In this document: in pieces, positions 3,071-60,666 of the stretch
Layout of the letters: the number at the start of each line of letters is the position of its first letter
Numbering within the stretch: the stretch's first letter is position 1
Assembly: GCA_051313645.2 (NCBI GenBank)
Contig: JBNRSN020000001.1
Coordinates: 216,318,001 to 216,382,000 of the forward strand
From: Centroscyllium fabricii
Lineage: Eukaryota
Length of the DNA: 64,000 nt
Direction of reading: 5' to 3'
The notes under the pieces: model-generated
Databases searched by the model: none
The model's input: only the letters and a program-made list of their open reading frames with translations
Told to the model about the DNA's origin: nothing
Program-made: the position numbers and the translations under genes

Positions 3071-6000
3071 TGTGGCGGCACGCCCACTTGGACACCGAAT
3101 CCGCCACGGGAACACCGCGGGGCAGAGCCCCGCTCATCCGGGTGATGCGACGACGTCATCACGTCTTCCTGCGTGATGACGTCACCAACGGCGGGCAGTT
3201 TAAATAAGCTTGTTTCGAGTGGTTCGCTCTCTTTCCTGTTTAACTGTAATGCATTAAACAAGTGTTTTCTCTAGCTCTCTGGCTCACGCGTGGTTTCTAG
3301 GCCTTGCTGGCGCTACAGTGGTGACCCCGAATTGGAACGACTTCCAAAGAAAAAAAGCTGCCGCAGGATCAAGGATCACCAGCTTAAGGACACTTTAAAA
3401 GAGAAAACATGACTGCAAGAGCAAGGAACCAAGCTCCACGAACCCAAGGACTTGGCCAGAACTTCGGGCACAGACTTACCCTGCCAGAGTTCTGGGAGCA
3501 ACGGCCAGCGGCCTGGTTCATGTGCATTGAGACCAGCTGCCGCACACATGGCATCCAGGGGGACGACCGCTACGACCTGGTCTTCTCAGCCCTACCGCAA
3601 TCGACGATCGATCGGATGTGGTCAAAAATACAGCGTGTGCCCACTACAGGCAGGTACGAATCCCTCAAGGCCGCGCTCATAATTTTTTTTACCCCCTCTC
3701 AATTTGAGCGCGACTGCCAGCTCCTTGACCTCCCCGAACTCGGGGACGCAGACCCATCGGACCTTTTGGGTCAGATGCAAGCGCTCACCGCCAATCCCGC
3801 CTCCCTGTTCCGCACCGTCTTCCTCCTCAAACTACCCCGCTCCATCAGGCCGGCCTTGGCGGCCCTGGGCCAGCGGAGCGACGACGAGCTCGCTGAGGAG
3901 GCCGACAGGCTCATGGAGGCAGAGCGCACCCGCTCAACCACGTGCGACCCTAACTCCGCATCTATAGAGCGCAACCAATCGCCCCCCAGGCCCAACTTCA
4001 TGCCTGAACCTAGGGCCCCGCGCCCACCCAGGCAACCGCGTCCCTCTAGCACCGGCTGGTGCTACTACCACACGCGGTTCGATAGTAAAGCGCACCGCTG
4101 CGTCCAGCCATGCGCATTTAAGCCACGGCCCACCCCAGCCCCCACCATGTCTGTAGGACTCACAGGAGCACTGCTCTTTGTTACAGACAGCGGCACAGGC
4201 CTCAGGTTCCTCTGCGACACAGGCGCACAGCACAGCATTGTGCCAGCCTCCCCTGCAGAAACCAAGCAAGGCACCCGGGGCCCGCCACTCGCAGCGGCCA
4301 ACGGCTCCAATATCAAAATGTACGGCACCCGCAAGCTCACGATTACACTTGCAGGCCACACGTATACCTGGGACTTTGTCACAGCCCAGGTCACTTCACC
4401 CCTCCTCGGGGCAGATTTCCTCTGCGCCTACGGCCTGCTGGTCGATATGACCCGGCGCCGCTTGGTCAACATTAATAACATGTCGACCATCCCATGCTCC
4501 ACAGGGCCCGCACTCCTGGCCCACGCGGCCGCCCAATGCCGCTCTCGGAACTCCGATGCCTACGGCACTCTCCTAGCAGAGTTCCCCGCCCTAACCAACC
4601 TCACGTTCACCGCCCGCCGGGCCAAACACGGGGTAGAACATTTTATAACTACCACAGGCCCTCCCGTCCATGCCCGCAGGCTCGACCCGGCCAAACAGGA
4701 GATCGCGCGCACCGAGTTCCGCACCATGGAGCAACTCGGTATTATCCGCCGCTCCAACAGCCCCTGGGCCTCTCCTCTCCATATAGCCCCCAAGCCGGGC
4801 GGGGGTTGGCGCCCCTGCGGCGACTACCGCCGCCTAAACAATGCCACTACCCTGGATAGGTACCCCGTACCCCACATCCAGGATTTTTCCGCCAGATTAG
4901 CGGGCTGCACGATCTTCTCCAAGATCGACCTGGTGCGTGGCTACCACCAGGTTCCGGTGCACCCGGCGGACATTCCCAAAACGGCCGTTATCACTCCCTT
5001 TGGACTCTTCGAGTTTCTCAGGATGCCCTTCGGCCTTAAAAACGCGGCCCAGGCCTTCCAGCGCCTCATGGACTCGGTCCTACGGGACTTGAAGTTCATT
5101 TTCGTCTACTTAGATGACATCCTCGTGGCCAGCACCTCCCCCCAGGAACACCTCCTGCACCTCAGGACCCTGTTCCAGCGCCTGGTCGAACACGGCCTAA
5201 TATTAAGCCCCACTAAGTGTAAATTCAGCCTCCAAACCATTGACTTCCTCGGCCACCGCATTTCCCAAACCGGGGCCATACCCCTGCCCTCCAAGGTGCA
5301 GGCGGTCCAGGAATTTCCCCGCCCGCACTCCATTAAGGGGCTGCAGGAATTCCTGGGGATGGTCAATTTTTACAACCGCTTTATCCCGGGAGCAGCCGCT
5401 CTCATGGCCCCCTTATACCAGGCCACACGCGGGCAGTCCAGCAAGGCTGCGGTCGAGTGGACGGCCGACGCCGCCACCGCCTTCACCGCAACTAAAACCG
5501 CCCTGGCTAACGCCACCCTCCTAGCCCACCCTAGGCCCAACGCCAGAGTAGCCCTCACCACCGACGCCTCCGACCACGCGGTCGGGGCCATATTTGAGCA
5601 GTGGACCGGCAACTCGTGGCAGCCCCTGGCCTTTTTCAGCCGGCAGCTCCGGCCCCCAGAGGTCAAGTACAGCGCCTTCGATAGGGAGCTCCTCGCTCTC
5701 CATCTGGCAATGCGACATTTTCGCTTCCTCCTGGAGGGCCGCCACTTCACAGCCTTCGTCGACCATAAGCCACTCACCTTCGCGATGGCTAAGGTCGCCG
5801 AACCCTGGTCGGCCAGGCAGCAGCGCCAGCTCGCGGCCGTGTCGGAGTTCACGACCGACATTCAGCATATCTCCGGCCGCGACAACGTGGTCGCTGACTG
5901 CCTCTCACGCCCCACCATTAACGCCGCCCAAATGGCGGTCGATTACGCCCAGCTGGCCGCAGACCAGCTGGCCGACCCTGACCTGCTCAACTCAGCAGCT

Positions 6001-7513
6001 AATCTCCCCGGCCTCCACTTGGCCAATATCGCGCACGGCCCCGCTGCCACCGTCGTCTGCTGCGACGTGTCCCTGCCGCAGCCCAGGCCCGTCGTCCCTC
6101 ACGCTTGGAGGGGACACATTTTCAAAACCCTCCACGACCTGTCCCACCCCGGCACCCGCGCATCGATTAAACTGATCTCGGCCCGGTTCGTATGGCGCGG
6201 CCTGCGCAAAGACGTCCGCGCCTGGGCCAACTCCTGCATTGCCTGCCAGCGCTCCAAAGTGCATAAGCACATCAGGGCACCGCTGGAAACATTTAAAGTG
6301 CCGGCCAGACGCTTTGACCACGTCCATATTGATCTCGTCGGGCCACTACCGCCATCCCGGGGCCACACGCACGTAATGACCATGGTCGACCGCAACACTC
6401 GCTGGCCAGAAGCAGTCCCCCTCGCTGCCACCGGCACCACGGACTTGGCCAGGGCGTTCATCGCCACCTGGGTCGCCCGCTTCGGCGTGCCCACCGACAT
6501 CACCTCCGACAGAGGACCCCAGTTCATGTCAGCACTATGGGCAGCCATCGCCCGCGACCTCGGGGTAACCTTGCATCGAACCACCGCATACCACCCACAA
6601 GCTAATGGGCTCTGCGAACGGTTCCACCGATCTATGAAGGCATCACTGCGAGCCACCCTCAAGGATGCGTCTTGGACCGACCGTCTCCCATGGGTCCTCC
6701 TCGGGCTGCGCTCGGCAGTCAAAGAGGACCTAAATGCCTCGGCAGCAGAACTCGTATACGGCCAAGCCCTAACAGTTGCGGGTGAATTTTTAGCCGAGCC
6801 AAACGCTCCCTGGTCAGCCGACCAGTATTTAAAAGACTTTGCCAACCCGGCATGAGCTTTCCAGCCACTGCCAGTGGCCCGGCACGGAGCGCCGGCAGCA
6901 CGAGTACCGGACGGCATTAAAAATGCAAAATTTGTGTTCGTCCGGCGCGACGGACACCGATCACCACTACAGCCACCATACGATGGCCCCTATAGAGTGC
7001 TTCGGGCGGGAGCTAAAGCTTTCCAGCTTCAAATGGGCAACAGGACAGAAACTGTTACAATAGACCGGCTCAAGCCGGCACACGTTATAGCGGGCGAGAC
7101 GACTGTCCCCGCACAACCACCGCAACGCGGACGCCCTCCCGCAACAACACCCGCCCACACTCCACCGCAGAACCAGAAGCAACGTACAACATGGGCCGGC
7201 CGCATCATCCGGCCACCCCAACGGCTCACATAGACTCTTTCCTATTTCTCCCGGACGGATTCTGGGGGGGGAGCTGTGTGGCGGCACGCCCACTTGGACA
7301 CCAAATCCGCCACGGGAACACCGCGCGTCTCATCCGGGTGACGCGACGACGTCACCATGTCTTCCTGCGTGATGACGTCACCAACGGCGGGCAGTTTAAA
7401 TAAGCTTGTTTCGAGTGGTTCGCTCTCTTTCCTGTTTAACTCTAATGCATTAAACAAGTGTTTTCTCTAGCTCTCTGGCTCACGCGTGGTTTCTAGGCCT
7501 TGCTGGCGCTACA
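3071..7513 (+). mobile_element. Full-length Ty3/Gypsy LTR retrotransposon A (CsRn1-type)
   Basis: LTRs 3071-3317 and 7277-7513 (TG...CA); 4-bp TSD ATAT; PBS TGGTGACCCCGA (tRNA-Trp) 3319-3330; G-rich PPT about 7264-7273; single gag-PR-RT-RH-IN frame; Gag Cx2Hx9Cx3C. Confidence 0.96.
3409..7233 (+). CDS. Gag-Pol polyprotein of element A (one in-frame TGA at 6853-6855, frame continues to 7233)
   Basis: PR LCDTGA, RT YLDD, RNase H TDAS, IN HHCC plus D-D-E and GPY module. The 6874 ORF is in the same frame as the 3409 ORF. Confidence 0.9.
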
Positions 7514-20490: not shown

Positions 20491-21158
20491 TGTATTGGTG
20501 CCTTTTCCTGCTCTCGCCCTGAACTGGAAAATTTCAGTTTTGGTTTCACCAGGAACACTCGGTTCCAGACTCATTACAGCCTTGGTCCAAACACGGACAA
20601 AGGAGCTGAATTCTGGAGGCGAGGTGAGAGTGACTGCCCTGGACATCAAGGAGCCCTAGTAAAATGGCATTCAATAGGGATCGGGGGGGAAACTCTCCAC
20701 TGGCTGGAGTCATACCTAGCACAAAAGAAGATGGTTGTGGTTGTTGGAGGCCAATCGTTTCAGTCCCAGGACATCATTGCAGGAGTTCCTCAGGGCAGTG
20801 TCCTAGGCTCAGCCATTTTCAGCTGCTTCATTAATGACCTTCCCTCCTGTGGTAACCGTATATGTATAAATTACCACCGTAATATTGGTGCCAATATTAC
20901 TAGTGTGCATAGCGGTCGGGTGCATGAGATGTTGCGACACTGTCGTGAGGCCAGGTCAGCCACACCTCTAACTCCTCCCCCAGGTGAGGCCCTTTATAGG
21001 TGAGGACTGACCGGACCCCGTCCATTCTGTACCTGTTGTTCGTTCGGAGTATAGCTCCTATGTAAGTCAATAAAAGCCTGTAGTTAAGGTCACTACTCGT
21101 CTTTGGCTTTATTGAGTTAATTGACGATACGTCAATTTTATTGACTTAAAAATTCGAA

Positions 21159-24100
21159 ATGGAGAGCGGCGCGGTAAAACCAGAGAAGCTGGACATCAGT
21201 CCACAGGACCCAGCCGCCGCCACTACCTTCGAACACTGCTTCGGTCTCCTGGAGGCCTACATGGACGCCGCTAAGGCTACAACCGACGGGAACAAGCTAC
21301 AGGTTCTCCAGTCCAGGATCTCCAGCCGAGTATTCTCCCTCATCCGGGACGCCAAAACGTACCCAGTGGCGGTGGAGAAACTGCGAAAATGCTACGAGCG
21401 CCCGGTCCACTCTGTCTACGCCAGACATGTGGAAGGTGCACGCCACAAGCTGCAGGCGTACAGCGTCACAAACCCGCAGGTCTACGACGCGTGGGCTGCA
21501 CCACAACGGGTCCAGGCCTGGGCAGCACCACAACGGGCCGAGACCCCCACGATGGCAGCGACAGCCGCGAAGACGCCGGCGGACAAAAAGTGCTACTTCT
21601 GCGGCCAGGGATTACATCCACGGGCGAGATGCCCAGCGAAGACCGCGACCTGCGAGAGGTGCTCCAAGAAGGGACACTATGCAAAGGCCTGAAGATCAGC
21701 CCCGGCGCTCAACTCCAGGTACAACAGCGCAGCCTGTGAAAGCTCCACCAGGTCTCAGGTAAGCTGCAATTGCAGCGCGATCCAGCGACGGTCCGGGGGT
21801 AGAGAAAACGCGCCCCCATCTCCCACCCTGATGCGGCAAAGGCCGGCTGCACCCACGGCACGCCAAGCTCAGCCACGGCCGGCCAGGCGCGACCCCCCAA
21901 CGCCGGCATCACGCCCAGCGCGGCCCGCTGCGTGCGAATCACGGGCACCGCCAACCCAACCGCCGCGGCTCGCTGCGTGCGAACCACGGGCACCGCCAAC
22001 CCAGCCACCGCGGCCCGCTGCGTGCGAACCACGGGCGCCGCCAACGCGCTCACAGCGGTCAGCCGCGTGCGAACCACGGGCGCCGCCATCTTGCCTCCAA
22101 TGGCCCGCCATGTGTGACCCCTCGGCGCCGCCATCTTGTCTCCAGCGGCCCGCCATGTGCGACCCCCCGGCGCCACCATCTTGTCTCCAGCGGCCCGCCA
22201 TGTGCGAACCACGGGCGCCGCCATCTTGTGTTCAGCCCCAACCAGCAGGGGGCCCACACACACAAACACACACTTCGGCTTCAGCCATCCCAAAAGTCGA
22301 TCAGGCTAGGCCGCACACCCTATCGAACTCAATTATGCCGATTAAAGTCAACGGCCATACGACCAACTGCCTGTTCGACACTGGAAGCACAGAGAGCTTC
22401 ATTCACCCTGATACAGCGCGGCGCTATGGACTGCAGATCCTGCCCACGAGCTACCAAGTCTCCCTTGCTTCACAGTCCCACACCACAGACGTCACCGGCT
22501 ACTGCTCCGTCACGCTCACAGTTAAGGGTTGAGTGTACCGCAACTTTAAGTTGTACATCCTCAAGCAACTGTGCGCCCCAACCTTACTGGGACTGGATTT
22601 CCAGTGCCACCTTAAGAGCGTGACAATGGAGTTCGGCGGGACCCTGCCCCACCTCACCGTCAGTAGCCGGGACAGTCCCTTCCCAAAGCGGAGCCCGGCC
22701 TGCGGCCTCTCCACCATGAAAATCGACCCCCCCTCACTGTTCGCCAATCTCGACCCCAACTGCAAGCCTATTGCTACCAAGAGTCGGCGGTACAGTGTGG
22801 GGGATCGGACATTTATCAGGTCGGAGGTCGGGCGTATGCTGAAGGAGGGGATAATTGAAGCCAGCACCAGCCCCTGGCGGGCCCAGGTAGTAGTGGTGAA
22901 GACTGGCGAGAAACAGCGGCTGGTTATCGATTACAGCCAGACTATTAACCGCTACACCGGGCCCGATGCCTATCCCCTCCCCCGCATCTCGGACATGGTC
23001 AACCAGATCGCCCAATACAAGGTGTTCTCCACAATCGACCTTAAGTCGGCGTATCACCAACTCCCGATCCGGAAAGCCGACCGCCCGTACACCGCCTTCG
23101 AGGCGAACGGTCGGCTCTACCACTTCCTCCGGGTCCCCTTCGGCGTGACCAACGGAGTGTCGGTATTCCAGCGGGAGATGGACCGCATGGTTGACCAGAA
23201 CGGGTTGCAGGCCACCTTCCCCTACCTGCACAACGTGACTATCTGCGGCCATGACCAGCAGGACCACGATGCCAATCTGGCCAAATTCCTTGACACGGCG
23301 AAACGGCTGGATCTAACGTATAACAAGGACAAATGTGTCTTTAATACAGATCGGCTCGCCATCCTCGGATACGTGGTGGAGAACGGGGTCCTCGGCCCCG
23401 ACCCACAGCGTATGCGCCCATTGCAGGAACTGTCCCTTCCTCACAACACCAAAGCCTTGAGGAGATGCCTAGGATTTTTCTCCTATTACGCACAATGGGT
23501 CCCACAGTTCGCGGACAAGGCTAGACCACTCCTCAAGGCTGCCGCCTTCCCCCACTTGGTAGAAGCCCAAACGGCATTCGCCCGGATAAAGGAAGACATC
23601 ATCAAGGCGACCATGCACGTCGTTGATGAATCCATCCCTTTCCAGGTGGAGAGTGACGCTTCGGACTTTGCCCTTGCTGCCACCCTGAATCAGGCAGGCA
23701 GGCCCGTAGCGTTTTTCTCCCGCACCTTACAGGGACCCGAAATTCGCCACTCTGCAGTGGAAAAGGAGGCCCAGGCCATCGTGGAGGCCGTGCGCTATTG
23801 GCGTCATTACCTGGCCGGTAAGCGTCTTACCCTACTCACCGACCAGCGGTCGGTTGCGTTTATGTTTAATAATAAACAAAAGGGTAAGATCAAGAATGAT
23901 AAGATCCTGCGGTGGCGGATCGAGCTCTCGACTTACGAGTACGACATTCTTTACCGACCAGGCAAACTCAATGAACCCCCGGACGCACTGTCCAGGGGAA
24001 CGTGCGCCAGTGCCCAGCTAGACCGGCAGAAGGACCTCCACGATCGCCTCGGTCACCCGGGTGTCACCAGACTCGCCCACTTCGTTAGATCCCGTAGCGT

Positions 24101-25177
24101 CCCCTACTCCATCACGGAGATCAAGGCTATGACCCGAGAGTGCCCTGTTTGCGCCGAGTGCAAACCCCAATTTTTCAGGCCAGACACGGCGCACCTCATT
24201 AAGGCCACCCGCCCCTTTGAACGTCTAAGCGTGGACTTCAAAGGCCCCCTCCCCTCCACCGACCGCAACTCGTACTTCCTCACGGTCGTAGACGAGTTCT
24301 CCCGCTTCCCCTTCCCCTGCCCAGATATGATGAGCGCAACAGTGATAAGGCACTTCACCACGCTGTTCGCCATTTTCGGTCTCCCCAGCTACATTCATGT
24401 AGCGATCAACTGCGCCAGTTTCTGCTCCAGAAAGGGGTTGACTCGAGCAGAACGACCAGTTACAACCCCCGGGGGAACGGCCAGGTAGAAAGGGAGAATG
24501 GGATCATCTGGAAGGCGGTCACCCTGGCTCTGAAGTCCAGAGGCCTTCCAGTGTCCCATTGGCAGGCAGTCCTCCCCGACGCGCTGCACTCGATACGCTC
24601 TCTGCTGTGTACGGCCACAAACGCCACCCCTCATGATTTAATGTTTTCCTTTCCCAGGAAGTCGACTTCGGGGACAGCTCTTCCACCGTGGCTCACGACG
24701 CCGGGGCCGGTCTTCCTTAGGAAACACGTCCGCGGCCACAAGACCGACCCCCTGGTAGAAAAGGTGCATCTCCTGCACGCCAACCCACAGTACGCCTACG
24801 TGCAGTTCCCGGACGGGCGCGAGGACACCGTCTCCATCAGGGACCTAGCGCCCGCCGGGAGCACCACAGCAGAGCCACTGGTCGGGCAGCAGCCCGCCCA
24901 GCCACGATATTTCGACCACCCCCTGCACCTACAGTGGCCACCAGGGTATCTAGAGCCCCCGCCGTGGCCAGCCCAAGACCACCATTCGGATGGCTCGGAC
25001 CAACCACCACCACCAGCACCTGAAGTTTCGGCACCAGCGCCGCTGTCACCACCACCGGACCCAAGCGGAACGGATCACACAGAACTTCTGCCAGAACCCC
25101 GGCGGTCCTCCAGACAGACGCGACCGCCGGACAAGTTAATAATGAACTGCTCTGTCCATTCACCCCGCCGGACTTAA
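21159..25177 (+). pseudogene. Disrupted gag-pol of element B
   Basis: Gag with two CCHC knuckles, PR LFDTGS, RT (YLHN), RNase H, IN; stops at 21690 and 22530 and a frameshift/deletion in IN. Confidence 0.9.
21860..22230 (+). repeat. In-frame 39-42-bp tandem repeat in the Gag-protease linker of B
   Basis: Units such as GCGTGCGAACCACGGGCGCCGCCA...; peptides AACEPRAPPT / PPSCLQRPAMC repeated about 8 times. Confidence 0.85.
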
Positions 25178-26610
25178 ATTTTCAAGAAGGGGTGAATGTG
25201 GTAACCGTATATGTATAAATTACCACCGTAATATTGGTGCCAATATTACTAGTGTGCATAGCGGTTGGGTGCATGAGATGTTGCGACACTGTCGTGGGGC
25301 CAGGTCAGCCACACCTCTAACTCCTCCCCCAGGTGAGGCCCTTTATAGGTGAGGACTGACCGGACCCCGTCCATTCTGTACCTGTTGTTCGTTCGGAGTA
25401 TAGCTCCTATGTAAGTCAATAAAAGCCTGTAGTTAAGGTCACTACTCGTCTTTGGCTTTATTGAGTTAATTGACGATGCGTCACCTCCATCATAAGGTCA
25501 GAAGTGGGGATGTTTGCTGACGATAGCACAGTGTCCATTTTCTATTAATGAAAATTTCACTATCCCCTTAAACTTCAGATTGATTTTCCATTTGAGTGCT
25601 TGAAATAGCAACTCATTTTTATTTTTATGAATCTATCTTATCAGTTCCAATTTCAGAAACAAGTGATTACACAGTTTGGTGGTTTACATGGTGTTTTAAC
25701 ATCAGAGAAGCAATTGACATTATGTGTAGATAGGATTGGTCAGCTTCACCCACCCCTGCAGGAGTAATTTGCAATGAACTGGGTTCCGCAGAAGGAGATG
25801 TGGGTATCATATTCCTGAAGTACCATTCTAACTTTCAGGAACAACAGCAATAATCGGATCGAGTCAGAGAATGGCAAGATAAAATACCTGCGTCGCACCT
25901 CCTCATCCATGAAGGAGTGCATCGAGTTCCTATGCCACATATTTCCACATATTTGCAGAAGACCTCTTTCAAGCGGATTGCAGAGACACCTGCAGATCTA
26001 CAATCCTTCTATGCGGAGTTCACCAATTATACGGGATAATCATCGTAACCTGGATGCAGTGAGCGTCAAGCAGCAGGAAGCGGACAGTCACTGTGACTTC
26101 TGGTGACAGGGCGTACACTCCACAGACACATGACGGCTGAGCTACCTGCAGCTGCACCTTCTGCATTCAGCATTTGTTGTCCTATCGTAGTGCAGAGGCA
26201 TTTGGGTTTGTCTCTGGGGAGACTTGCCCCCCGACAGCCGTTGGCAATCATCTCGGCTGCATGTTGATGTAGACATTGCTTCTGGAATTGTGGTTACCGA
26301 AGCCCGGCCATGTGCCTTCAACAGCTGTGAGAAGTACCGTATAGCTGCAGACATCACACATCGACTACAGCACATCTTGACCAACAGCGGACAGAGACTT
26401 TCCAGTGCTAACTCGACTGGCTAGAATGACAGGTTTACAACTGGCAGCAAGGACTGGGAGAGGAGATGGAATGGACCAACCCATCTGCAGCTGCTCCTTC
26501 TGGATCCAGCATCATGAACAATGGTGCAATTGTGCCTCGATCAATACCTGGTGCCTCCCAACATGGAAAAAGTACCCGAGGCCCTTTCATTCGCAGTTGA
26601 AACAAATGTT

Positions 26611-32024: not shown

Positions 32025-35000
32025 GGTCTTGTTTTGCACACTTGGTACAAAACTAATAAATTGTAGGACAACGGAGTATTATAAACTAACTCTTCTAATA
32101 GCATATGGTCTGATGTTCTCCTTGCAGCTCCATGTGCAAGACTCTAAGTAAAAACTAAAATGGCGGAGGCAGGACCCAAAAGTTTCTAGAATGTTCCAGA
32201 AACACAGAAGATAGGAGCAGGAGTAGGCCATTCCGCCCTTCGAGCCTGCTCTGCCATTTTGATGAGATCATGGCTGATCATCCAAACCCAGCACCCCCCT
32301 CCTACCCTCTTCCCATATCCCCCGACACCCCCAACTGCCCAGCAATACTGCCCTTGCAGAATGCCTGCTGGCTAAGAACCAATCACAATTCAGTATGCAA
32401 ATATTACATTCCCTTTCTTTTAAAAGAAAAATGTTATGCATTATTTTTTAAACCTTTTTATTCCTACATAATGTTTTCAGTAGCATAAACATGTATGTAT
32501 ACTCAGTATTTAACTAACACCGAAAACATCTCAACATTTCTATGTACAGTTTTAGGGCAGCGATTCACATACACCCTTTGGCAGCACACAAGTCCAGGAT
32601 AACTCGGGGCTTGACCTCTTGTCCCGATCTTGTGCGGTATGATCTGGAATCAGTCAACAGTTCAGGTTCAGGTGTTGATTTGTTTGATGTTTTGTTCATC
32701 ACACTCTGTTGAACTGGTCATCTCATTGGAGTGACGGTGTTGTTCCTTAGTGTTCAGGAGGTGCCTGCGATTGCGACGATACACCTGTCCTTCTGGGGTG
32801 CGGATGTGATACGATCGCTCAGTGTCAGCTGGCTGGATAACGATTACTGGCTTCCAGTAGTCATGCTCCTTGATTCTGACGGATTCACCATTGTGCAGTG
32901 GCAGCAGTAGTCTAGCTGACCTGTCGTGGTATTGCTTTTGGCATTGCTGCCTCTGTACACGTTTTGCATGCACTTGCTTACAGCTGACTGCCTCTGGCTG
33001 TAGCTGTTGGTTGGTGCTTGGCAGTATTGAGTGAAGTCTGCGGCTCATTAATAGCTGTGCTGGTGACTTGAAGTTGTCAACCGGCGTGTTGCGGTACTCA
33101 AGGAGACTGTTGTATGGGTCTCTTTTGTCCGCCTTGGCTTTGTCCATGAGTGTCTTTGCAATCTGGACAGTTTTCTCAGCAAGACCATTACTCTGAAGGT
33201 AATGTGGGCTTGATGTGACATGTGTGAAATCCCATGCCTTGGCAAATAACTCGAACTCTTTCGATGTGTATTGGGGCTCATTATCTGATATTAAAGTCTC
33301 TACTATGCCATGCCTGGCAAAGGCTGCCTTTAGCTTGTGGATCACAGCTGCGGATGTGGTGCTGTGAAGCTAGTCTAGTTTGAAGAATCTACTGTAGTAA
33401 TCAACAGTCACTATGCAGACCTTGTTGTTCCATGTGAACATTTCCGTTGCCACGACCTGCCATGGCCTGTCTGGGATACGGTGAGGTATCATGGGCTCTT
33501 TGACTTTTGATGGGCAGCGTTCTAGACAAAATGGAACATTTTCTGACAATGTCCTCAATGTGTTTTCATATTCCTGGCCAAAACATAATGTCACATGCTC
33601 TTTGTTTACATTTTTCCATGCCCATATGTCCCGCATGAATTTTGGTTAACATCTCTTCTGAGTCTGGTAGGGATGATGATTTTCTCCCCTTTGAAGACGA
33701 TTTTGTTGATTTGTGACAGTTCGTCTGAGGTTCCAGAATTCAGATATGCTCGGAGGGCATTTTCTCCTTTCCTCGGGCATTTTCTCCTTTCCTCAGGCCA
33801 TCCTTCATGTATGACTTTGCTCAGCAGTGTGAGTTGTGCATCTTTCTCTGTTTCTGCTTGGATCTCCTTCAGTTTTGAGTCACTCACAGGTAAGCTGTTG
33901 TATACCATGTGCATCTGCACATCCATGCCTTCACTGAGGCTGCTGTCCTGGTAGCTAAGAGACTTTCTGGAGAGCATGTCTGCAACGGGAATGTCTTTGC
34001 CTGGACGGTGGATGATTGTGAAGTCGTACCTCTGTAGCTGAAGGATCATTCTCTGTAGCCTTGGTGGGGCTGTGGCTAGCGGTTTCTTCGTAATTAACTT
34101 GAGGAGCCTGTGGTCGGATTCCACAATGACTTGTTGGCCATAGACGTACTGGTGGAAACGCTTACATCCAAACAGAATTGCATATAGCTCTCTCTCGATT
34201 TGACCATAGTTGATTTCACTGTCGGAGAGAGATCTGCAAAAAGTCACACAACACCAGGTTTATAGTCCAACGTTTTATTTTAAATCACAAGCTTTCGGAG
34301 CGTCGCTCCTTCGTCAAGGTGAACAGAGAGAGACTGAACTTAAACATCACACATCAGGGGAGGGGAGAAATCCGATCTCTTACACATCTCATTCTGTGGA
34401 TATCGGAGGAGGGGAGAAATCCGATCTTATACACATCACACCCTAGAGACAGAGAAATCCGATCTCTGCCTAGAGACAGAGAGAGCGCACACAAAGGCAC
34501 ATCTGGAAGCTTAGCCGATGGGCTTTCTTTCCTGCAGTAATACTGTGCCTAGTCCATACTTTGACGCGTCCACTTGTACTCTGAGCTCTTTGTTGGGCTT
34601 GAAGTAGGCAAGAACTGGTCCTGGCTCTCTGGTGATTAAGTCTTTCATTTTCTGAAATGCTGTGTCATGTTGTTTGTCCCACAGGAACTCATTTGATTGT
34701 TTGAGCAACTGATGCATTGGTACATTGATTTCAGAAAGGCTCGGGGCAAACTTGGCTAAGTAGTTAACCATGCCTAGTACTGTCTCTAGCTCTGCATGGT
34801 TCCTCGGCGGCTCCATCTTCTTGATGGCGGAGATTTTTTCTGGATCCGGTTTAATGCCATCAGTTGTGAGGCGTTGCCCAAAATAACTGATCTCAGTGGA
34901 TCCGATTATGCTTTTCTCGGGGTTGAGCCGGACACCTTTCTCCCGTGATCTTTGTAGCATCGCACGGAGGTTCCTGTCATGTTCCTCTCTATTCCTGCCA

Positions 35001-37006
35001 TAAATGAGGATGTCATCTACGATTGCGATTACTCCGTCGAGGCCTTCATATATTTTGTCGATTTTCCGCTGGAATTCATCCTGAGCTGAGATAAGACCAA
35101 ATGGTAAACGCAAAAATCGGTAGCGTCCAAATGGTATGTTGAACGTCGTTGGCTTAGATGACTCTTTCGTGAGTTTTATAGTCCAATATCGTGATCATGC
35201 ATCCATTACACTGAAGTAACATGCTCCCACTAGCTTGGGTGTGATGTCATCTAGCGTTGGTAGAGGGTAGTGATGGCGTTTGATAGCCTTGTTCAAATCT
35301 CTGGGGTCAAGACAGACTCTGAGCTTGCCTGTACGTGGTTTCTCAACCACTACTAATGCATTGACCCACTCTGTCGGTTCTGTTTCCCGGACGATGATTC
35401 CTGTACTTTCCATGCTCTGCAGCTCCTCCTTCAGGCGGCTATGTAGAGCAAGGGGTATCCTTCTCGGTGGGCAAACCACAGGGGTTGTTTCTGGGTCAAG
35501 GTGAATAGTTAATTCACCTGGGAATAGTCCGATTCCTTCGAAAACGTCAGCAATCTCCTCCATGACTGTCTGCTTCTCAATTGGTGCTGTCAATGATAGC
35601 ACTAGGTTGATGAGGTCCATGTCTAAACATGCTTTTAGACCTAGCACTGGAGGTGCTGGAGTGTCAACAATGTAAAAGTCCAACATCATGTTGCTTTCTT
35701 TGTACTTGCATTTCATCGCACATGTGCCTTTTACACCGAGTTGCTCACCCCCATAACTGGTCAGTCTGTGTGAGGTAGGCTGTAGCTCACACTCATCCTT
35801 CAAGCTGCGATACTCAGAGTAATTACGTTAACTTGCGCTCCAGTGTCAAGCTTAAATCTAAGCTCTGTGCCATGTCTTCCTATCTGAATGTCTGCGAAAG
35901 CCTGTGCCATTTTTGAAATCTGTTTTTTCTGTGACACAAAATCGAAAAACAGTTCCGTTTTATTTGGCTCTCTATCTGGCATTTGGCTGTCACTCAGTGT
36001 GTATGGTTTTTCCACAAACAGTCCTATGCACTTTAGCAAAGTGGTTCCGTTTGCCACACTTAGTACATTGTCTTCCTCTGGCAGGGCAAATCTCATTTTC
36101 GCAATGCGACTTGTTTCTACAATGTCCACAGTTTCTGAATCATTTTATATCTGTGTCGCCCATTTTTAGAACTCTCTGTTCTATTTTCTGCGTGCACTGT
36201 CTCTTCGGTTATGGTTTTCAACTGTGCTCGGGCTATCTTATGTGATCTAGCTACATCTATAGCTTTGTCCAAGTCAGCCCGGATCCGACATTTAAAAGTT
36301 TCTCTCTCACTTTCTCGGAATGTATTCCAAACACGATACCATCTCTAATCATCTCATCTGTATTTGCATAATCACAGTCTATAACCAACAGTTTTAAATC
36401 AGTCACGAACTGTTCAAATGACTCGCTAGCTTCTTGTACTTTCTTTTGAAACTTGTATCTAGCGAATATCATATTTTTCTTGGGCATTACATACATTTCA
36501 AAACGATCAAATAAACCTTTCAGTACTTTTGCTTCATCCGTGGTGAGAGTCCATGAGCTAAAAATTTCTCTCCCGGTTTCTCCGACCCATATGAGTAAAT
36601 AACTGCATTTTTCTTCCTCTCCTTTGTCTCTTACAGGACCAGAAAACAATAGTTCCACATGCCGCTTGAACCTTTTCCATGCTTGAGGTAAGTTCAACGA
36701 ATCCCAATTAATTCTCGGTATGGAAACTTCTACAAAGTCCATTTTTGATCCCTGTTCTGACACCATGTCTTGTTTTGCACACTTTGTACAAAACTAATAA
36801 ATTGTAGGACAATGGAGTATTATAAACTAATTCTTTTAATAGCATATGGTCTGATGTTTTCCTTGCAGTTCCATGTGCAAGACTCTAAGTAAAAACTAAA
36901 ATGGCGGAGGCAGGACCAAAAGGTTTCTGGAATGTTCCAGCAGTACTGCCCTTGCAGAATACCTACTGGCTAAGAACCAATCACAATTCAGTATACAAAT
37001 ATTACA
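32025..37006 (-). mobile_element. Decayed full-length Ty3/Gypsy element C
   Basis: 5' LTR 36766-37006; 3' LTR 32025-32408 (interrupted by about 143 bp of CR1/SINE tail); 5-bp TSD CGTCC; PBS TGGTGTCAGAA (tRNA-Leu-like) ending 36765; PPT 32409-32420; fragmented gag, LDTGA, RT IVDD, RNase H, IN. Confidence 0.92.
34237..34500 (-). mobile_element. Penelope pseudo-LTR fragment inserted in the RNase H of element C
   Basis: Same repeat family as 50084-50697; ATCTG duplicated at both flanks; host frame ASRS|LSD interrupted. Confidence 0.75.
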
Positions 37007-38596: not shown

Positions 38597-41500
38597 TGTG
38601 GCGGTACGCCGGCTGGCGAATCCGCCTCGGGAGTACTGCGGGGCATAGCCCCGCCCACCGGGTGACGCGATGACATCACCACGTCTCTCGGCGTCATGAG
38701 GTCACGAGCGGCGGGTAGTTTAAATAAGCCTGCTCCTCGTGGTTCAGTCTCTTTCTTGCTTATGTAGTTGTTAATTAAACAAGTGTTATCTGTCTCTCCG
38801 GCTCGTGTGTGGTTCTTGGGTCCTGCAAGCGCTACAGTGGTGACCCCGACTTGGAACGTCTTCCAAGGAGAAAACAGCAGCTACAGGACTTAAAACCCAG
38901 CATCCTCAGAACACTTATAAACAACATGACTTCCAGAAACCAAGCTTCTTGTCAACAAGGACTTGGCCAGAACCCCGGGCACAGACTAACTCTACCGGAG
39001 TTCTGGGAGCAACACCCGGCAGCGTGGTTTATGTGTGTAGAGACCAGCTGCCGCACTCATGGCATCCAGGGGGACGACCGCTATGACCTGGTCTTCTCGG
39101 CCCTACCGCAATCGACGATCGATTGGATGTGGTCGAAGCTACAGCGCGTGCCCGCAGAAGGCAGGTGTGAATTTATCAAGGCTGGGCTACTTAAAAAATT
39201 CACCCCCTCCCAGTTCGAGCGCGACTGCCAACTCCTTAACCTCCCCGAACTCAGGGACGCAGACCCATCGGACCTTTGGGGCCAAATGCAAGCGCTCACC
39301 GCCGATCCCGCCTCCCTGTTCCGCACCATTTTCCTCCTTAAGCTGCCCCCCTCCATCAGACCGGCCCTGGCGGCCTTCTGCCACCGGAGCGGGGACGAGC
39401 TAGCCGAGGAAGCCGACAGGCTCATGGCGGCCGAGCACACCCGCTCCGCCACGTGCGACCTCACTGCCGCGGCAGTCGAGCCCACCCACTCGCCCCCCAG
39501 GTCCAACCCAACGCCTGAACCCAGGCCCCCGCGCCCTCCCAAGCAACCGCGAGCCGCAAGCACCTGTCACTGCTACTACCACGCGCGGTTCGGCACTAAA
39601 GCGCACCGCTGCATCCTGCCCTGCACGTTCAAGCCACAGCCCGGCCCAGCCCCCACCATGTCTGTAGGCCACACCGGAGCCCTGCTCTACGTCACAGACA
39701 GCGGCACAGGCCTCCGGTTCCTCTGCGACACGCGCGCACAGCACAGCATCGTGCCAGCCTCCCCCGCAAAGCCAAAAAAGGCACCCGGGGCCCGCCAGTC
39801 GCGGCTGCCAACGGCTCGGACATCAAAACGTACGGGACCCGCAAGCTAACAATCTAGCTTGCTGGCCACACTTATGAATGGGAGTTTGTCACGGCCCAGG
39901 TCACATCACCCCTCCTCGGGGCAGATTTCCTCTGCATCCACGGCCTCCTAGTCGACATGACCCGGCGCCGCCTGGTCGACATTCAAAATATGTCGACCAT
40001 CCCATGCTCCACAGGGCCGGCACTCCTGGCCCACGCGGCGGCACAATGCCGCGCCCGGAACTCTGACGCGTACGGCTCGCTCCTCGCTGAGTTCCCAGCC
40101 CTTACCAATCCCACCTTCACCGCCCGCACGGCCAAACACGGGGTGGAACACTTTATCACCACCACCGGCCCTCCCGTGCATGCCCACGCCCGCAGGCTGG
40201 ACCCGGCCAAGCTGGAGATTGCGCGCACCGAGTTCGGCACTATGGAGCAACTCGGCATAATCCGCCGCTCCAGCAGCCCCTGGGCCTCTCCCCTCCACAT
40301 CGCCCCCAAGCCGGGCGGGGGTTGGCACCCCTGCGGCGACTACCGCCGCCTCAACAATGCCACTACCCCGGATAGGTACCCCGTACCCCACATCCAGGAT
40401 TTCTCCGCCAGGCTAGCGGGCTGCACGATCTTCTCCAAGATCGACCTGGTGCGTAGCTACCACCAGGTCCCGGTGCACCCGGCGGATGTCCCCAAGACAG
40501 CCGTAATCACCCCCTTCGGCCTGTTCGAGTTCCTCAGGATGCCCTTCGGACTCAAAAACGCGGCCCAGGCCTTTCAGCGCCTAATGGACTCAGTCCTGCG
40601 GGACTTGCAGTTCATTTTCGTCTACTTAGACGACATCCTCATGGCCAGCACCTCCCCCCAGGAGCACCTCCTGCATCTCAGGACCCTGTTCCAGTGCCTG
40701 ACCGAACACGGCCTCATATTAATGCAAATTCGGCCTAGAAATTATAGACTTCCTGGGCCACCGCATTTCCAAAACCGGGGCCATACCCCTGCCCTCCAAA
40801 GTGCAGGCAGTCCAGGAATTCCCCCGCCCGCACTCCATTAAGGGCCTGCAGGAGTTCCTCGGGATGGTTAACTTTTATAACCGCTTCATCCCAGGTGCAG
40901 CCGCTCTCATGGCTCCCCTATACCAGGCCACACGCGGGCAGTCCGGCAAAACTGCGGTCGAGTGGACGGCCGCCACCGCGTTTACCGCAACCAAGACCGC
41001 CCTGGCCAACGCCACCCTCCTAGCCCACCCTAGGCCCAACGCCAGAGTGGCCCTCACCACCGACGCCTCCGACCATGCTGTCGGGGCCGTTTTCGAACAG
41101 TGGGCGGGCAACTCCTGGCAGCCCCTGGCCTTTTTCAGCCGGTACCTACGGCCCCCGGAGGTCAAGTACAGCGCCTTCGACAGGGAGCTCCTCGCTCTCT
41201 ACCTCGCTGTGCGCCATTTTCGCTTCCTCCTGGAGGGCCGTCCCTTCACAGCTTTCGTGGATCATAAGCCGCTGACATTCGCAATGGCTAAGATCTCCGA
41301 ACCCTGGTCGGCCAGGCAGCAGCGCCAACTCGCAGCCGTGTCGGAATTCACTACCGACATCCAGCACATCTCCGGCCGCGACAACGTGGTTGCTGACTGC
41401 CTGTCACGTCCCATTAACGCCGCCCAAATGGCGGTCGATTACGCCAAGCTGGCAGCAGACCAGCTGGCAGACCCAGACCTGCTCGACCCAGCAGAAAACC

Positions 41501-42994
41501 TCCCTGGCCTACGCTTGGCCAACATCGCCCATGGCCCCGCGGCCACCATAGTCTGCTGCGACGTATCGTTACCGCAGCCCAGACCCGTCGTCCCCCACGC
41601 ATGGAGGCGGCGCATTTTCGAGACCCTCCATGGCCTGTCCCACCCCGGCACCCGCGCCTCCATTAAACTTATTTCGGCCCATTTTTTGTGGCGCGGCCTA
41701 CGCAAAGACGTCCACGCCTGGACCAACGCCTGCATCGCCTGCCAGTGGGCCAAAGTGCACAAGCACATCAAAGCCCCGCTGGAAACGTTTACTGTGCCAG
41801 CCAGGCGCTTCGACCACGTCCATGTCGATCTCGTTGGACCACTGCCGCCATCCCGGGGCCACACACACCTCATGACCATGGTCGACCGCAACACTCGCTG
41901 GCCAGAAGCAGTCCCCTTGGTTGCTACCAACACCACGGACTTAGCCAGGGCGTTCATCGCGACTTGGGTCGCCCGTTTCGGCGTGCCCACCGACATCACG
42001 TCGGACAGAGGTCCCCAATTTACGTCTGCACTATGGGCGGCCATCGCCCGCGAGCTCGGGGTGACCCTGTATAGAACCACCGCGTACCACCCACAAGCTA
42101 ACGGGCTCTGCGAAAGGTTCCACCGCTCCATGAAAACCTCCCTGCGGGCCAGCCTCAAAGACGCATCATGGACAGACCGTCTTCCTTGGGTACTGCTCGG
42201 ACTACGCTCGGCGGCCAAAGAAGATTTGCACGCCTCAGCAGCGGAACTCGTCTATGGCCAGACATTAAGAGTGCCGGGCGAGTTTCTCGCCGAATCAAAC
42301 GCTCCCTGGTCGGCCGACCAGTTCCTCAAGGACTTTGCCAACCCGGCACGAGCGTTCACCCCCTTACCGGTGGCCCAGCACGGAAAGCCGGCGGCACGTG
42401 AACCGGACAACATCAAGCACGCAAAGTACGTGTTCGTCCGTCACGACGCCCATCGTTCACCTCTACGGCCACCTTTACAGAGTGCTTCGGGCGGGATCCA
42501 AAGCTTTTGAGCTACAGCTGGGCAACCGGACAGAAACAGTCTCCATCGACCGGCTGAAACCGGCACACGTAATAGCGGGCGACGCGACAGTCCCCGCCCA
42601 ACCACCTCAACGCGGACGCCCTCCCGCACCAACACCCCCCTACACTCCACCGCTGCACCAGGAGCAACGCACGACATGTGCCGGCCGCATCTTACGGCCA
42701 CCACGACGCCTCGTATAGACTCTTTTCCTCTCGGACGGATTCTGGGGGGAGCTGTGTGGCGGTACGCCGGCTGGCGAATCCGCCTCGGGAGTACTGCGGG
42801 GCATAGCCCCGCCCACCGGGTGACGCGATGACGTCACCACGTCTCTCGGCATGATGAGGTCACGAGCGGCGGGTAGTTTAAATAAGCCTGCTCCTCGTGG
42901 TTCAGTCTCTTTCTTGCTTATGTAGTTGTTAATTAAACAAGTGTTATCTGTCTCTCTGGCTCCTGTGTGGTTCTTGGGTCCTGCAAGTGCTACA
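38597..42994 (+). mobile_element. Full-length Ty3/Gypsy element D (CsRn1-type, sister subfamily of A; frameshifted)
   Basis: 240-bp LTRs 38597-38836 and 42755-42994; 4-bp TSD ACCT; PBS TGGTGACCCCGAC; gag ATG 38926; protein closely similar to A but broken into several ORFs. Confidence 0.96.
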
Positions 42995-59000: not shown

Positions 59001-60666
59001 CTTTGAGCCGCGGTTTGTGACCGTGAGAGGGGGAAGGGGTCCACCGAATGCCATTGTAACGCTCCGAAGATGGCACTGGAAATCCAGTCCCAGGAGTAGG
59101 GGGGCGCAGAGCTGCGGCAGCACGTAAAAACTAAAATCATTGAACATTGCGCCCTGTACATTAAGAGTTACAATACAGCGCCCGGTGACGTCAGCGGATT
59201 CTGACTTGGACGCCATAGATATTCTCTGGCGCGCAGGGATTACTTTAAGGGAGAGGCGCTTAACAGTATTCTGGTGAACAAAACTTACTGTGCTCCCACT
59301 GTCGAACAGGCACACCACCTCTTCACCGTTAACTTCCACCGGCATCATCGACCTCTCCAGTGGCTGGATTTTCCTCTGGTCTAGGCTCACGGATGCTAGT
59401 ACCAGGTCCTCCAAAAAGTCTTGATCCGGAGAGTAGTTATCTTGGTCCGGAGAGTAGTTATCTTGATCCGGAGAGTAGTCCTCCAGATCTGCTCCCCGAG
59501 ATGGCTGCCGCCATGTGTTGCGCTGTTGAGTCCAAGATGGCCGCTGTTGCTGCCTCGAGTGCTGCCGAGTGGGGGATGGGTGAGCCCGATATTGCTGCTC
59601 CCCTGTTCCACACGCAGCGCTGCCCAGTCTTGATTTAGCGTTTGGGCCTTTGCAAACCTTTGCATAGTGTCCCTTTTTGTCGCACTTGGAGCAGATCGCT
59701 TCTTTTGCGGGGCAGCTGCGTCTTGGATGCTGTGGTTGCCCACAGAAGTAGCATTTAGCTTTAGCGTGGGCCGCTGTGAGAAGTTCCTCTGGCGGTCTTT
59801 GCGCCAGTACTGTCCAAGATTGCGGGGCTGGGCCCGTATAGTTACTAGAGTAGGATGATAAATCCGTAGAGGCGCTATCTAGCGCGTGTCCCAAATCTGT
59901 AGTGGCCTGTAAGTCCTGGCCATTCTGCTCTAGCAGTCTTTGCCTAGCATAGTCCGATTTCAGGCCTGTTACATAGGCATCCCTGATGAGACTCTCCATA
60001 TGCACTAGAGCCGTTTGCGTTCTGCAGTCACAGTCCCGTGCCAGAATTCTGAGGGCTCTTAGGAACTGCACACTCGACTCGTTATTCTGTTGTTTTCGGG
60101 TGGCGAGTATATGTCTCGCGTGGACTCTGTTTGGTGCCCGATTGTATTCCGCCTCGAGGATCCTGAGGGCTTCTTGGAATGATGGGGCGTCCACTATCAT
60201 CGAATATACTTGCGGGCCCACCCGGGCGTGGAGGAGTCGTCGTTTTTGCTCCTCGGTCAGTATGACCGCTGCGTTGGCTCTAACGTATCCTTCAAGTACA
60301 TTTCGCCAGTGTGAGAAAGCGTTTGATGCTCCAGGCGATCGGGGGTCAACTTCGAACACTGATGGTTTCAACATTGTAGTATCCATTTCCAGTAGTTAAT
60401 AAAATTGTAACCGTCAATAACGTCTTCGGAGTCGAATAGTTGGTTATAATAATCAGGCTTTTATTAACTACGTTAGCAATACACAACTGAGCTGACTGTC
60501 CCCAGAATGGCATGGGGGATGGGGGCAGTCGCTTATATACCTCCTCCAGCGGGGGAGGAGTCATGGGCGGCGCCAGGTATGTTCCTGGGATCCCGTACAG
60601 GTATTACAGGTATTACAAGGTATTACAAGGTGATTCGTTATATACAGTGATATATGGTTTATCACA
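56006..60666 (-). mobile_element. Full-length intact Ty3/Gypsy element E (no tRNA PBS)
   Basis: LTRs 60406-60666 (5') and 56006-56276 (3') differ by 1 substitution and one 10-bp repeat unit; 5-bp TSD CAGGG; PPT AAAGAAGGGGTGAA. Confidence 0.97.
56403..60386 (-). CDS. Intact 1327-aa Gag-Pol polyprotein of element E
   Basis: Uninterrupted ORF: two CCHC knuckles, PR LFDSGS, RT YLDN, RNase H SDAS, IN HHCC, VDF...SDRG...ERE. Confidence 0.95.
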   Translation of the reverse strand: MDTTMLKPSVFEVDPRSPGASNAFSHWRNVLEGYVRANAAVILTEEQKRRLLHARVGPQVYSMIVDAPSFQEALRILEAEYNRAPNRVHARHILATRKQQNNESSVQFLRALRILARDCDCRTQTALVHMESLIRDAYVTGLKSDYARQRLLEQNGQDLQATTDLGHALDSASTDLSSYSSNYTGPAPQSWTVLAQRPPEELLTAAHAKAKCYFCGQPQHPRRSCPAKEAICSKCDKKGHYAKVCKGPNAKSRLGSAACGTGEQQYRAHPSPTRQHSRQQQRPSWTQQRNTWRQPSRGADLEDYSPDQDNYSPDQDNYSPDQDFLEDLVLASVSLDQRKIQPLERSMMPVEVNGEEVVCLFDSGSTVSFVHQNTVKRLSLKVIPARQRISMASKSESADVTGRCIVTLNVQGAMFNDFSFYVLPQLCAPLLLGLDFQCHLRSVTMAFGGPLPPLTVTNRGSKRHPQYTTCGLSTLKVAPPSLFANLTPDCKPVATKSRRYSARDMAFIKSEVQRLLKEGVIEASNSPWRAQVVVVKTGEKNRMVVDYSQTINRFTQLDAYPLPRIADMVNQIAQFKVFSTIDLKSAYHQLPIRSEDRLYTAFEADGRLYHFLRVPFGVTNGVSVFQREMDRMVDRYRLRATFPYLDNVTICGHDQQDHNTNLQKFLHTAKALNLTYNKEKCVFSTTRLAILGNVVENGVIGPDPDRMRPLMELPLPHSPKSLKRILGFFAYYAQWVPNYADKARPLLKSTSFPLSAEANSAFCRIKNDIAKATMHAVDESVPFQVESDASDFALAATLNQAGRPVAFFSRTLQGPETRHSSIEKEAQAIVEAVRHWKHYLAGKRFTLLTDQRSVAFMFNNKERGKIKNDKILRWRIELSAFNYDILYRPVIFNEPPDALSRGTCASAQADRLQTLHNDLCHPGVTRLVHFVKSRNLPYSIEEVKTMTSNCQVCAECKPHFYRPDRAHLIKATRPFERLSVDFKGPLPSANRNVYFLNVIDEYSRFPFAIPCQDMTSATVIKALSSIFSLFGYPNYIHSDRGASFMSDELRQFLLAKGIATSRTTSYNPRGNGQVERENATVWKAIQLALKSKDLPVTRWQDVLPEALHSIRSLLCTATNATPHERLFAFPRKSASGTSLPSWLLSPGPVLLRKHVRGHKADRLVERVHLLHANPQYAYIAYPDGREDTVSIKDLAPAGVPKTSPARQPELPKRPVTLPAPPRPKYTPRHVGPVPQYVHKASASSTTRPQALIHNARPLESEDEGENAPPAVRIRASPPPRSDITTTSRPAAREQPTQPATPRQRTPQAPPAVQRSARITKPPDRLNL

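Follow-up and report, generated by a model that had tools for sequence, protein, structure and literature searches.

A primer-binding site that pairs with the element's own R region points to self-priming in an animal-wide clade of Ty3/gypsy retrotransposons

Element B, a retrotransposon of Centroscyllium fabricii, carries behind its 5' LTR a primer-binding site (PBS) that is complementary to a stretch of its own LTR. Comparison of many copies and relatives indicates that this helix, P1, is a pairing of the PBS with the element's own R region that is conserved by covariation. We propose, with a probability of roughly 0.8, that P1 serves self-priming, in which a 5' piece of the mRNA of ~52 nt would be cut between AAA and GCC and prime minus-strand synthesis. 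Because the PBS pairs with the own LTR, and because copies that overshoot the PBS carry reversed R, it is very likely that the whole animal-wide group starts reverse transcription from the clipped-off 5' end of its own RNA. To our knowledge, Tf1-type elements are so far the only ones in which self-priming has been demonstrated.

The window, that is, the whole stretch of DNA analysed here, comprises 64,000 nt of C. fabricii contig JBNRSN020000001.1 (positions 216,318,001-216,382,000, forward strand). Element B belongs to the Ty3/gypsy LTR retrotransposons and has no tRNA primer site. Its features, and the corresponding helix of a second element, E, are as follows (window positions):

20848..21134, + strand: 5' LTR of element B (TG...CA), from LTR pair comparison and target-site duplication (TSD)
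20993..20999, + strand: TATA-like box, ~29 nt upstream of the predicted start
21023..21075, + strand: predicted self-primer, the first 52-53 nt of the mRNA, from initiator C21023/A21024 to AATAAAA; based on overshoot ends
21063..21075, + strand: 5' arm of P1, holding AATAAA at 21069-74; by complementarity
21076..21090, + strand: P2 helix, GCCT (21076-79) with AGGT (21087-90), from conservation; predicted cut between A21075 and G21076
21097..21127, + strand: rival U5 stem TCGTC/GACGA (P3a), from pair probability and MFE; competes with the palindrome
21119..21137, + strand: LTR-end palindrome (P3b), AATTGACG-ATA-CGTCAATT, from the sequence
21136..21148, + strand: PBS, the 3' arm of P1, not tRNA-like; by complementarity
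21159..25177, + strand: gag-pol of B, with two zinc knuckles, PR, RT, RNase H and IN
25184..25196, + strand: polypurine tract of B, from the sequence
25197..25483, + strand: 3' LTR of element B, from LTR pair comparison and TSD
60392..60471, - strand: the same arm/PBS helix in element E (arm 60459-71, PBS 60392-404); by complementarity

The two LTRs of B differ at 3 positions in 287 nt and are flanked by a 5-bp TSD, CCTCC, at 20843-47 and 25484-88. These bounds place the LTR end at CA 21133-34, which is followed by one A and then by the 3' arm of P1. The gag-pol region is interrupted by stops and a frame change. Its domain order, PR-RT-RH-IN, is that of gypsy elements (Pfam), and the best PDB match of the RT is Ty3 Gag-Pol (E 2e-58). 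B combines TG...CA LTRs, a TSD, a polypurine tract and an RT closest to Ty3, as Ty3/gypsy elements do. A 45-bp tandem repeat at 21877-22273 encodes a Pro/Arg-rich spacer between gag and protease. The window holds three further gypsy elements, which have TGG-type primer sites: A (3133-7513) and D (38597-42994) carry TGGTGACCCCG, and C (32026-36940) carries TGGTGTCAGAA.

In B, the LTR CA is followed by one A and then, at the usual position of a tRNA site, by TTTTATTGACTTA, the reverse complement of 21063-75. The arm, TAAGTCAATAAAA at 21063-21075, matches 21136-21148 exactly over 13 bp, as the initial annotation had reported, and terminates in AATAAAA within the R segment. The primer-binding position starts 1 nt past the CA of the LTR. 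A 13-bp match at the LTR end of B has a chance of ~1e-5, and folding gives z = -3.3. The PBS of B starts with TTTT, and neither a TGG-type start nor complementarity to a tRNA 3' end was found in it; an Rfam search (E up to 5) returned no match. Instead, the PBS sequence covaries with the element's own LTR. The helix in E had initially been taken as independent support, on the grounds that the B and E LTRs are dissimilar. However, the two RTs are 82% identical and belong to one clade, so B and E do not represent independent origins.

The search pattern AATAAA-N30-60-CAATTTTATT has 174,618 matches in the C. fabricii genome, compared with 721 for a reversed control. We assembled 51 copies, consisting of element E and 50 of the listed pattern loci, 20 of which were picked for diversity. 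The six P1 pairs that lie outside the search pattern are all Watson-Crick in 40/51 copies but in only 4.7% of cross-pairs, and positions 8-9 are both paired in 46/51 copies (17% in cross-pairs). Pairing declines beyond 13-14 bp, and 17 different perfect 13-mers occur among 28 arm/PBS pairs. Outside the pattern, 293 of 306 cells are Watson-Crick and 5 are G-U. This Watson-Crick excess raises the idea that the PBS might be copy-corrected from the primer; Ty1 and Ty3 are described as not inheriting primer sequence (PMC5371799).

Thirty B-family loci were picked by their Gag protein, independently of the helix pattern. All 13 P1 pairs are perfect in 24 of them and at least 12 in 28, and in the two misses the region is absent or deleted. 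Copies of the B family that lack the complementarity, which the initial annotation had named as evidence against its poly(A)-signal/PBS helix, were thus not encountered beyond these two, and the helix itself stands: it is kept within the family, covaries across families and animals, and its R arm is copied in the overshoots described below. In 8/30 copies AATAAA/TTTATT is replaced by ATTAAA/TTTAAT.

The helix extends beyond this genome. Out of 80 metagenome loci encoding relatives, 47 had a gag start and upstream DNA, and 39 of these 47 loci from other animals have a P1 helix of 9-20 bp in the same register. As 20/47 loci derive from one record series, they were collapsed by a crude key into 22 groups. 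The arm hexamer is AATAAA in 7 of these groups, ATTAAA in 4 and another sequence in 11, and in 20/22 the arm is followed immediately by GCC or ACC. In L251, L254 and L303 the arm ends in GTTAAA, and AATAAA or AATAAG lies further down in the loop, which suggests that the poly(A) signal can move while the TAAA-RCC junction stays. Some families (L264-L267, L287) have helices of 19-20 bp, which are possibly fixed partial overshoots.

P2 forms between the RCC that immediately follows the arm and a GGY within the loop. This pairing is found in 34/51 copies of this genome (vs 18.9), and P2 helices of at least 4 bp occur in 16/22 outside groups, compared with 4.5 in shuffles (maximum 9 in 500 shuffles). 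Judged by this conservation, the clade-wide partner helix of P1 is RCC/GGY, beside the predicted cut, and not the LTR-end palindrome. The initial annotation had not seen the RCC/GGY helix.

In the mechanism that we propose, the mRNA would start at the initiator 21023-24 and fold such that nt 40-52 pair with the primer site. It would then be cut at the P1/P2 junction, between AAA and GCC (A21075/G21076; clade form AAA followed by RCC), and the resulting front piece of ~52 nt would prime minus-strand DNA. The first strand transfer would use the short repeat that separates AATAAAA from the 3' poly(A) site. Transcription start, poly(A) site and cut position are in this scheme predictions from DNA alone. 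By analogy with Tf1, the cut at the P1/P2 junction would probably be made by the element's own RNase H. Because pairing is limited to the 3'-terminal 13-14 nt of the primer, normal replication would need a stop, trimming or Ty3-like recycling.

If the primer is a 5' piece of the mRNA, a plus strand that reads through it should yield a PBS that runs on as reversed R up to the transcription start. Such overshoots are present in the genome. Three patterns gave 71, 217 and 755 matches (1,043 in all; controls 0), where the spacing of the first hits a sister subfamily and not B proper, while that of the second is set for B. The 755 matches compare with 24,708 normal junctions, so that overshoots make up ~3% of this one family group. 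We examined 135 of the 1,043 loci in listing order (35, 70 and 30); the patterns fix the junction, and thus its register is not itself tested by these loci. Endpoints were scored relative to a CATT initiator placed on normal reference LTRs. Among the 135 copies, 31 fall short of the initiator and 32 stop on its +1 A or -1 C. A further 7 stop no more than 28 nt beyond it, 4 within U3, 57 where U3 starts and 4 beyond the polypurine tract. In other words, 32 of the 104 overshoots that reach the initiator end exactly on it. One further locus (L131) ends there by eye; it was kept as a miss in this count and added to the set of 33 used below. After shared junctions were collapsed, 27 distinct initiator ends remain, where the rate just upstream predicts 1.8. 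The 32 copies fall in two family groups (19 and 13).

The TATA-like box lies 28-31 nt from the initiator in 38/42 relatives scored, so two lines, TATA spacing and overshoot endpoints, agree on the start site. The reversed copies end 52-53 nt from the 3' end of the arm. The distance from initiator to arm is 51-53 nt in 37/46, a purely descriptive figure, as the motif nearest 52 was chosen. The overshoot end is followed by GC in 11/27 cases against a background of 7.8%, a figure confounded by microhomology at the landing site; in L220 neither GC base is present in the landing template. GC after the end is consistent with a start at C and a copied cap. For the 3' end, a search for poly(A)-tailed LTR copies gave 5 matches at 3 places (control 1).

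The sequence beyond the overshoots speaks to their origin. Of the 33 initiator-ended loci, 27 run on into the sense strand of the element itself, at scattered sites, as expected of a mis-transferred plus strand; 3 continue antisense and 3 could not be assigned. The jumps to the sense strand mostly occur by 1-4 nt of microhomology. Among 19 palindromic overshoots with TG (the U3 end) on both sides, nine have a 5-bp TSD (L103, L129, L137, L146, L152, L159, L197, L205, L212). These are mini-elements of 435-545 bp, and a U3 end on each side together with a TSD implies that integrase accepted two U3 ends. Eight single-LTR products with a partial primer copy (L104, L153, L177, L186, L204, L220, L225, L243) are also flanked by a 5-bp TSD. 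TSD-flanked overshoots must have formed before integration. After the jump, the single-LTR insertions resume in U5 and include its final 9-21 nt (a longer piece in L177). Several of them resume on the ATTGACG arm of the palindrome, which weakly suggests that the palindrome may fold as DNA or that integrase may need ~15 bp. L128, L133 and L157 share one overshoot-to-gag junction, which reflects either repeated landing at one site or the spread of a defective subfamily whose primer site is 52 nt long. In the palindromic products, mismatch rates in the primer-copied part do not differ from the remainder (20/957 vs 58/3517, six artefact rows dropped).

We interpret the overshoots as putative captured plus-strand strong-stop DNAs that have read through the whole attached primer. 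In Ty3, the first plus-strand strong-stop DNA is described as copying into the primer and being displaced as a dead-end product (PMC5371799). The overshoots may be likened to this displaced first-round product, which would also explain how a long primer is tolerated. Whereas 12 nt of the tRNA are copied in the Ty3 account, copying here reaches the 5' end of the predicted primer, and the products are integrated. The 57/135 overshoots that run to the U3 start and the 4 that pass the polypurine tract call for a second step, either fold-back or re-annealing.

These data have to be weighed against other routes. The primer could be a piece of only 13-14 nt that is cut on both sides from R; overshoots would then arise by template switching, when a plus strand whose end lies in the PBS jumps to the 5' end of another RNA that is still uncut. 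This would account for the 13-14 nt over which normal copies pair, would require no stop inside a long primer, and predicts the same initiator endpoint. We nevertheless consider it unlikely, since the second cut would lack a conserved motif and an overshoot share of ~3% is high for a chance switch; the element would, in any case, remain self-priming. Slightly less probable still is a primer supplied in trans, in which a capped LTR transcript, kept short by termination at the 5' poly(A) signal and then trimmed to AAUAAAA, anneals to intact genomic RNA, or the 3' copy of R primes. The coincidence of the primer end with the poly(A) hexamer would fit such a transcript, which would also end at the initiator, and in L102 and L103 the copied piece carries a subfamily variant that differs from the own LTR. 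As a rule, however, the copied piece tracks the locus's own LTR: it is closer to it than to the median relative in 30/34 loci and farther in none, with on average 1.0 base difference vs 4.7 for the median relative in a loose comparison set. Moreover, conservation of RCC/GGY at the junction is expected if intact RNA is the substrate, several families have no canonical hexamer in the arm, and priming by 3' R leaves the initiator peak unexplained.

The 5' poly(A) signal of HIV-1 is hidden by its polyA hairpin, and P1 might likewise do nothing but hide the 5' poly(A) signal of the element while something else primes. In most families AATAAA has a predicted unpaired probability of 0.06 with the PBS, compared with 0.50 in LTR-only folds, and the hexamer toggles between AATAAA and ATTAAA, both as such a role would predict. 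Yet masking explains neither the PBS register nor the initiator-ended reversed copies, 11/22 outside groups have neither hexamer in the arm, and in B the signal of the 3' LTR is predicted to be hidden as well; we regard masking as the sole function as very improbable. Finally, helix and palindrome could be features of the DNA and the overshoots fold-back inversions of the chromosome after insertion, which would suit the reversed copies extending through U3. These copies stop at the integrase end, the TG of the LTR, with host flank uncopied, they are flanked by TSDs, and only an RNA template would give so sharp a stop at the initiator, so that hardly any weight is left for this origin. Under self-priming, masking of the 5' poly(A) signal could be a second job of P1; on the folding models we give this even odds, and the case is weaker for B itself. 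In both LTRs of B, the U5 stretch 21105-21119 (GGCTTTATTGAGTTA) can pair with the same arm, and it is the predicted mask of AATAAA in the 3' LTR.

The closest known parallel is tRNA-free priming as described for Tf1 and Tf2 of Schizosaccharomyces pombe, Tj1 and the Tf1/sushi chromoviruses (PMC7175516, PMC10085805, PMC4600332). In the Tf1 account, the first 11 nt of the mRNA pair and RNase H cuts between bases 11 and 12 (PMC7175516), and self-priming needs a structure of three duplexes (PMC10085805). Like Tf1, B is a tRNA-free Ty3/gypsy element whose PBS pairs with its own 5' LTR RNA, whose primer would be a 5' piece of the mRNA, and whose extra helix uses LTR sequence just 3' of the primer. 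Unlike in Tf1, the paired part lies 40-52 nt from the predicted start, giving a primer of ~52 nt that ends at the poly(A) signal. Set against the Tf1 pretzel, P1 and P2 are conserved, while the U5-end stem is variable across families.

Although it appears to work like Tf1 in its priming, the element is, by its sequence, not a Tf1/sushi chromovirus. Neither a chromodomain/SH3_Tf2 nor a GPY/F region was found after the integrase in element E or 5 homologues (E up to 0.1). An RT tree (57 rows, those <140 aa left out, midpoint root) contains a clade of 46 rows with support 99/99, separate from 6 SH3_Tf2-bearing rows of this genome that act as stand-ins for named Tf1/sushi sequences. The RT of element E (56403-60395, - strand) has the catalytic motif YLDN; this motif, YMDN or YIDN is found in most clade members, and five metagenome RT rows have YLDD. 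Among Ty3/gypsy clades, Cigr-1 is listed in PMC6238403. TAR/Houba copia elements, with predicted self-priming, and fungal GalEa, with a hairpin site (PMC6317226, PMC5445492), indicate that tRNA-free priming arose in other LTR lineages too. Unlike the present clade, both belong to the copia superfamily, and the GalEa hairpin is described as lying downstream of the LTR and without an LTR partner. A description of priming in this clade was not found in the literature searched, a scope outside of which most subscription journals and Repbase reports fell.

We lean slightly towards the broader view that self-priming evolved independently of Tf1 in a gypsy clade that is animal-wide and non-chromoviral, with a capped primer of ~52 nt cut between UAAA and RCC. 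The primer would often end in the poly(A) signal, such that a single helix would serve for primer production as well as for silencing of the 5' poly(A) site, and integrated RT errors would allow primer and start to be read from the genome. If true, the clade would represent a second way of self-priming, in which the primer is long and the cut site conserved, with at least 174,618 junctions in one genome. These would offer natural substrates for studying RNA duplex cleavage by RT RNase H, and for asking how plus-strand synthesis comes to a stop when there is no modified tRNA base. The identification of primers from integrated overshoots could be extended to elements without a recognisable PBS, such as fungal GalEa and Tcn2-5.

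The LTR-end palindrome probably acts as an accessory U5 stem that is limited to some lineages. The perfect hairpin at 21119-21137 that straddles the LTR end is indeed present, and E keeps only ATTG/CAAT of it, both as initially annotated. Perfect hairpins of this kind are not rare, with 31 of at least 8 bp in the window. Since the palindrome shares 21136-37 with P1, only 6 bp (TTGACG/CGTCAA, 21121-26/21130-35) are compatible with the full helix. The initial annotation had proposed that this nested stem positions the primer in the manner of the retroviral U5-IR. In favour of a structural role, at least 5 pairs are kept in 33/51 copies of this genome (3.6% in shuffles), with compensatory changes (TTGACG/CGTCAA, TTGATA/TATCAA, TTGAG/CTCAA). 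The positioning role is weakly supported, as the palindrome is missing in the E-like and F-like families of the 51-copy set, occurs at chance in other animals (2/22 groups vs 1.7), and in B has a predicted pair probability of ~0.3 compared with 0.61-0.68 for the rival stem, both using GACG. The Rous sarcoma virus U5-IR stem, mentioned in PMC3601003 and PMC5445492, is likewise short and sits at the U5 end, immediately upstream of the PBS; it operates with tRNA priming, whereas the stem here is found in some families and competes with another. A small hairpin, GGAG..CTCC near 21048-21060, lies just 5' of the arm in B-like families; it is inconsistent across families and is a candidate stop for plus-strand synthesis.
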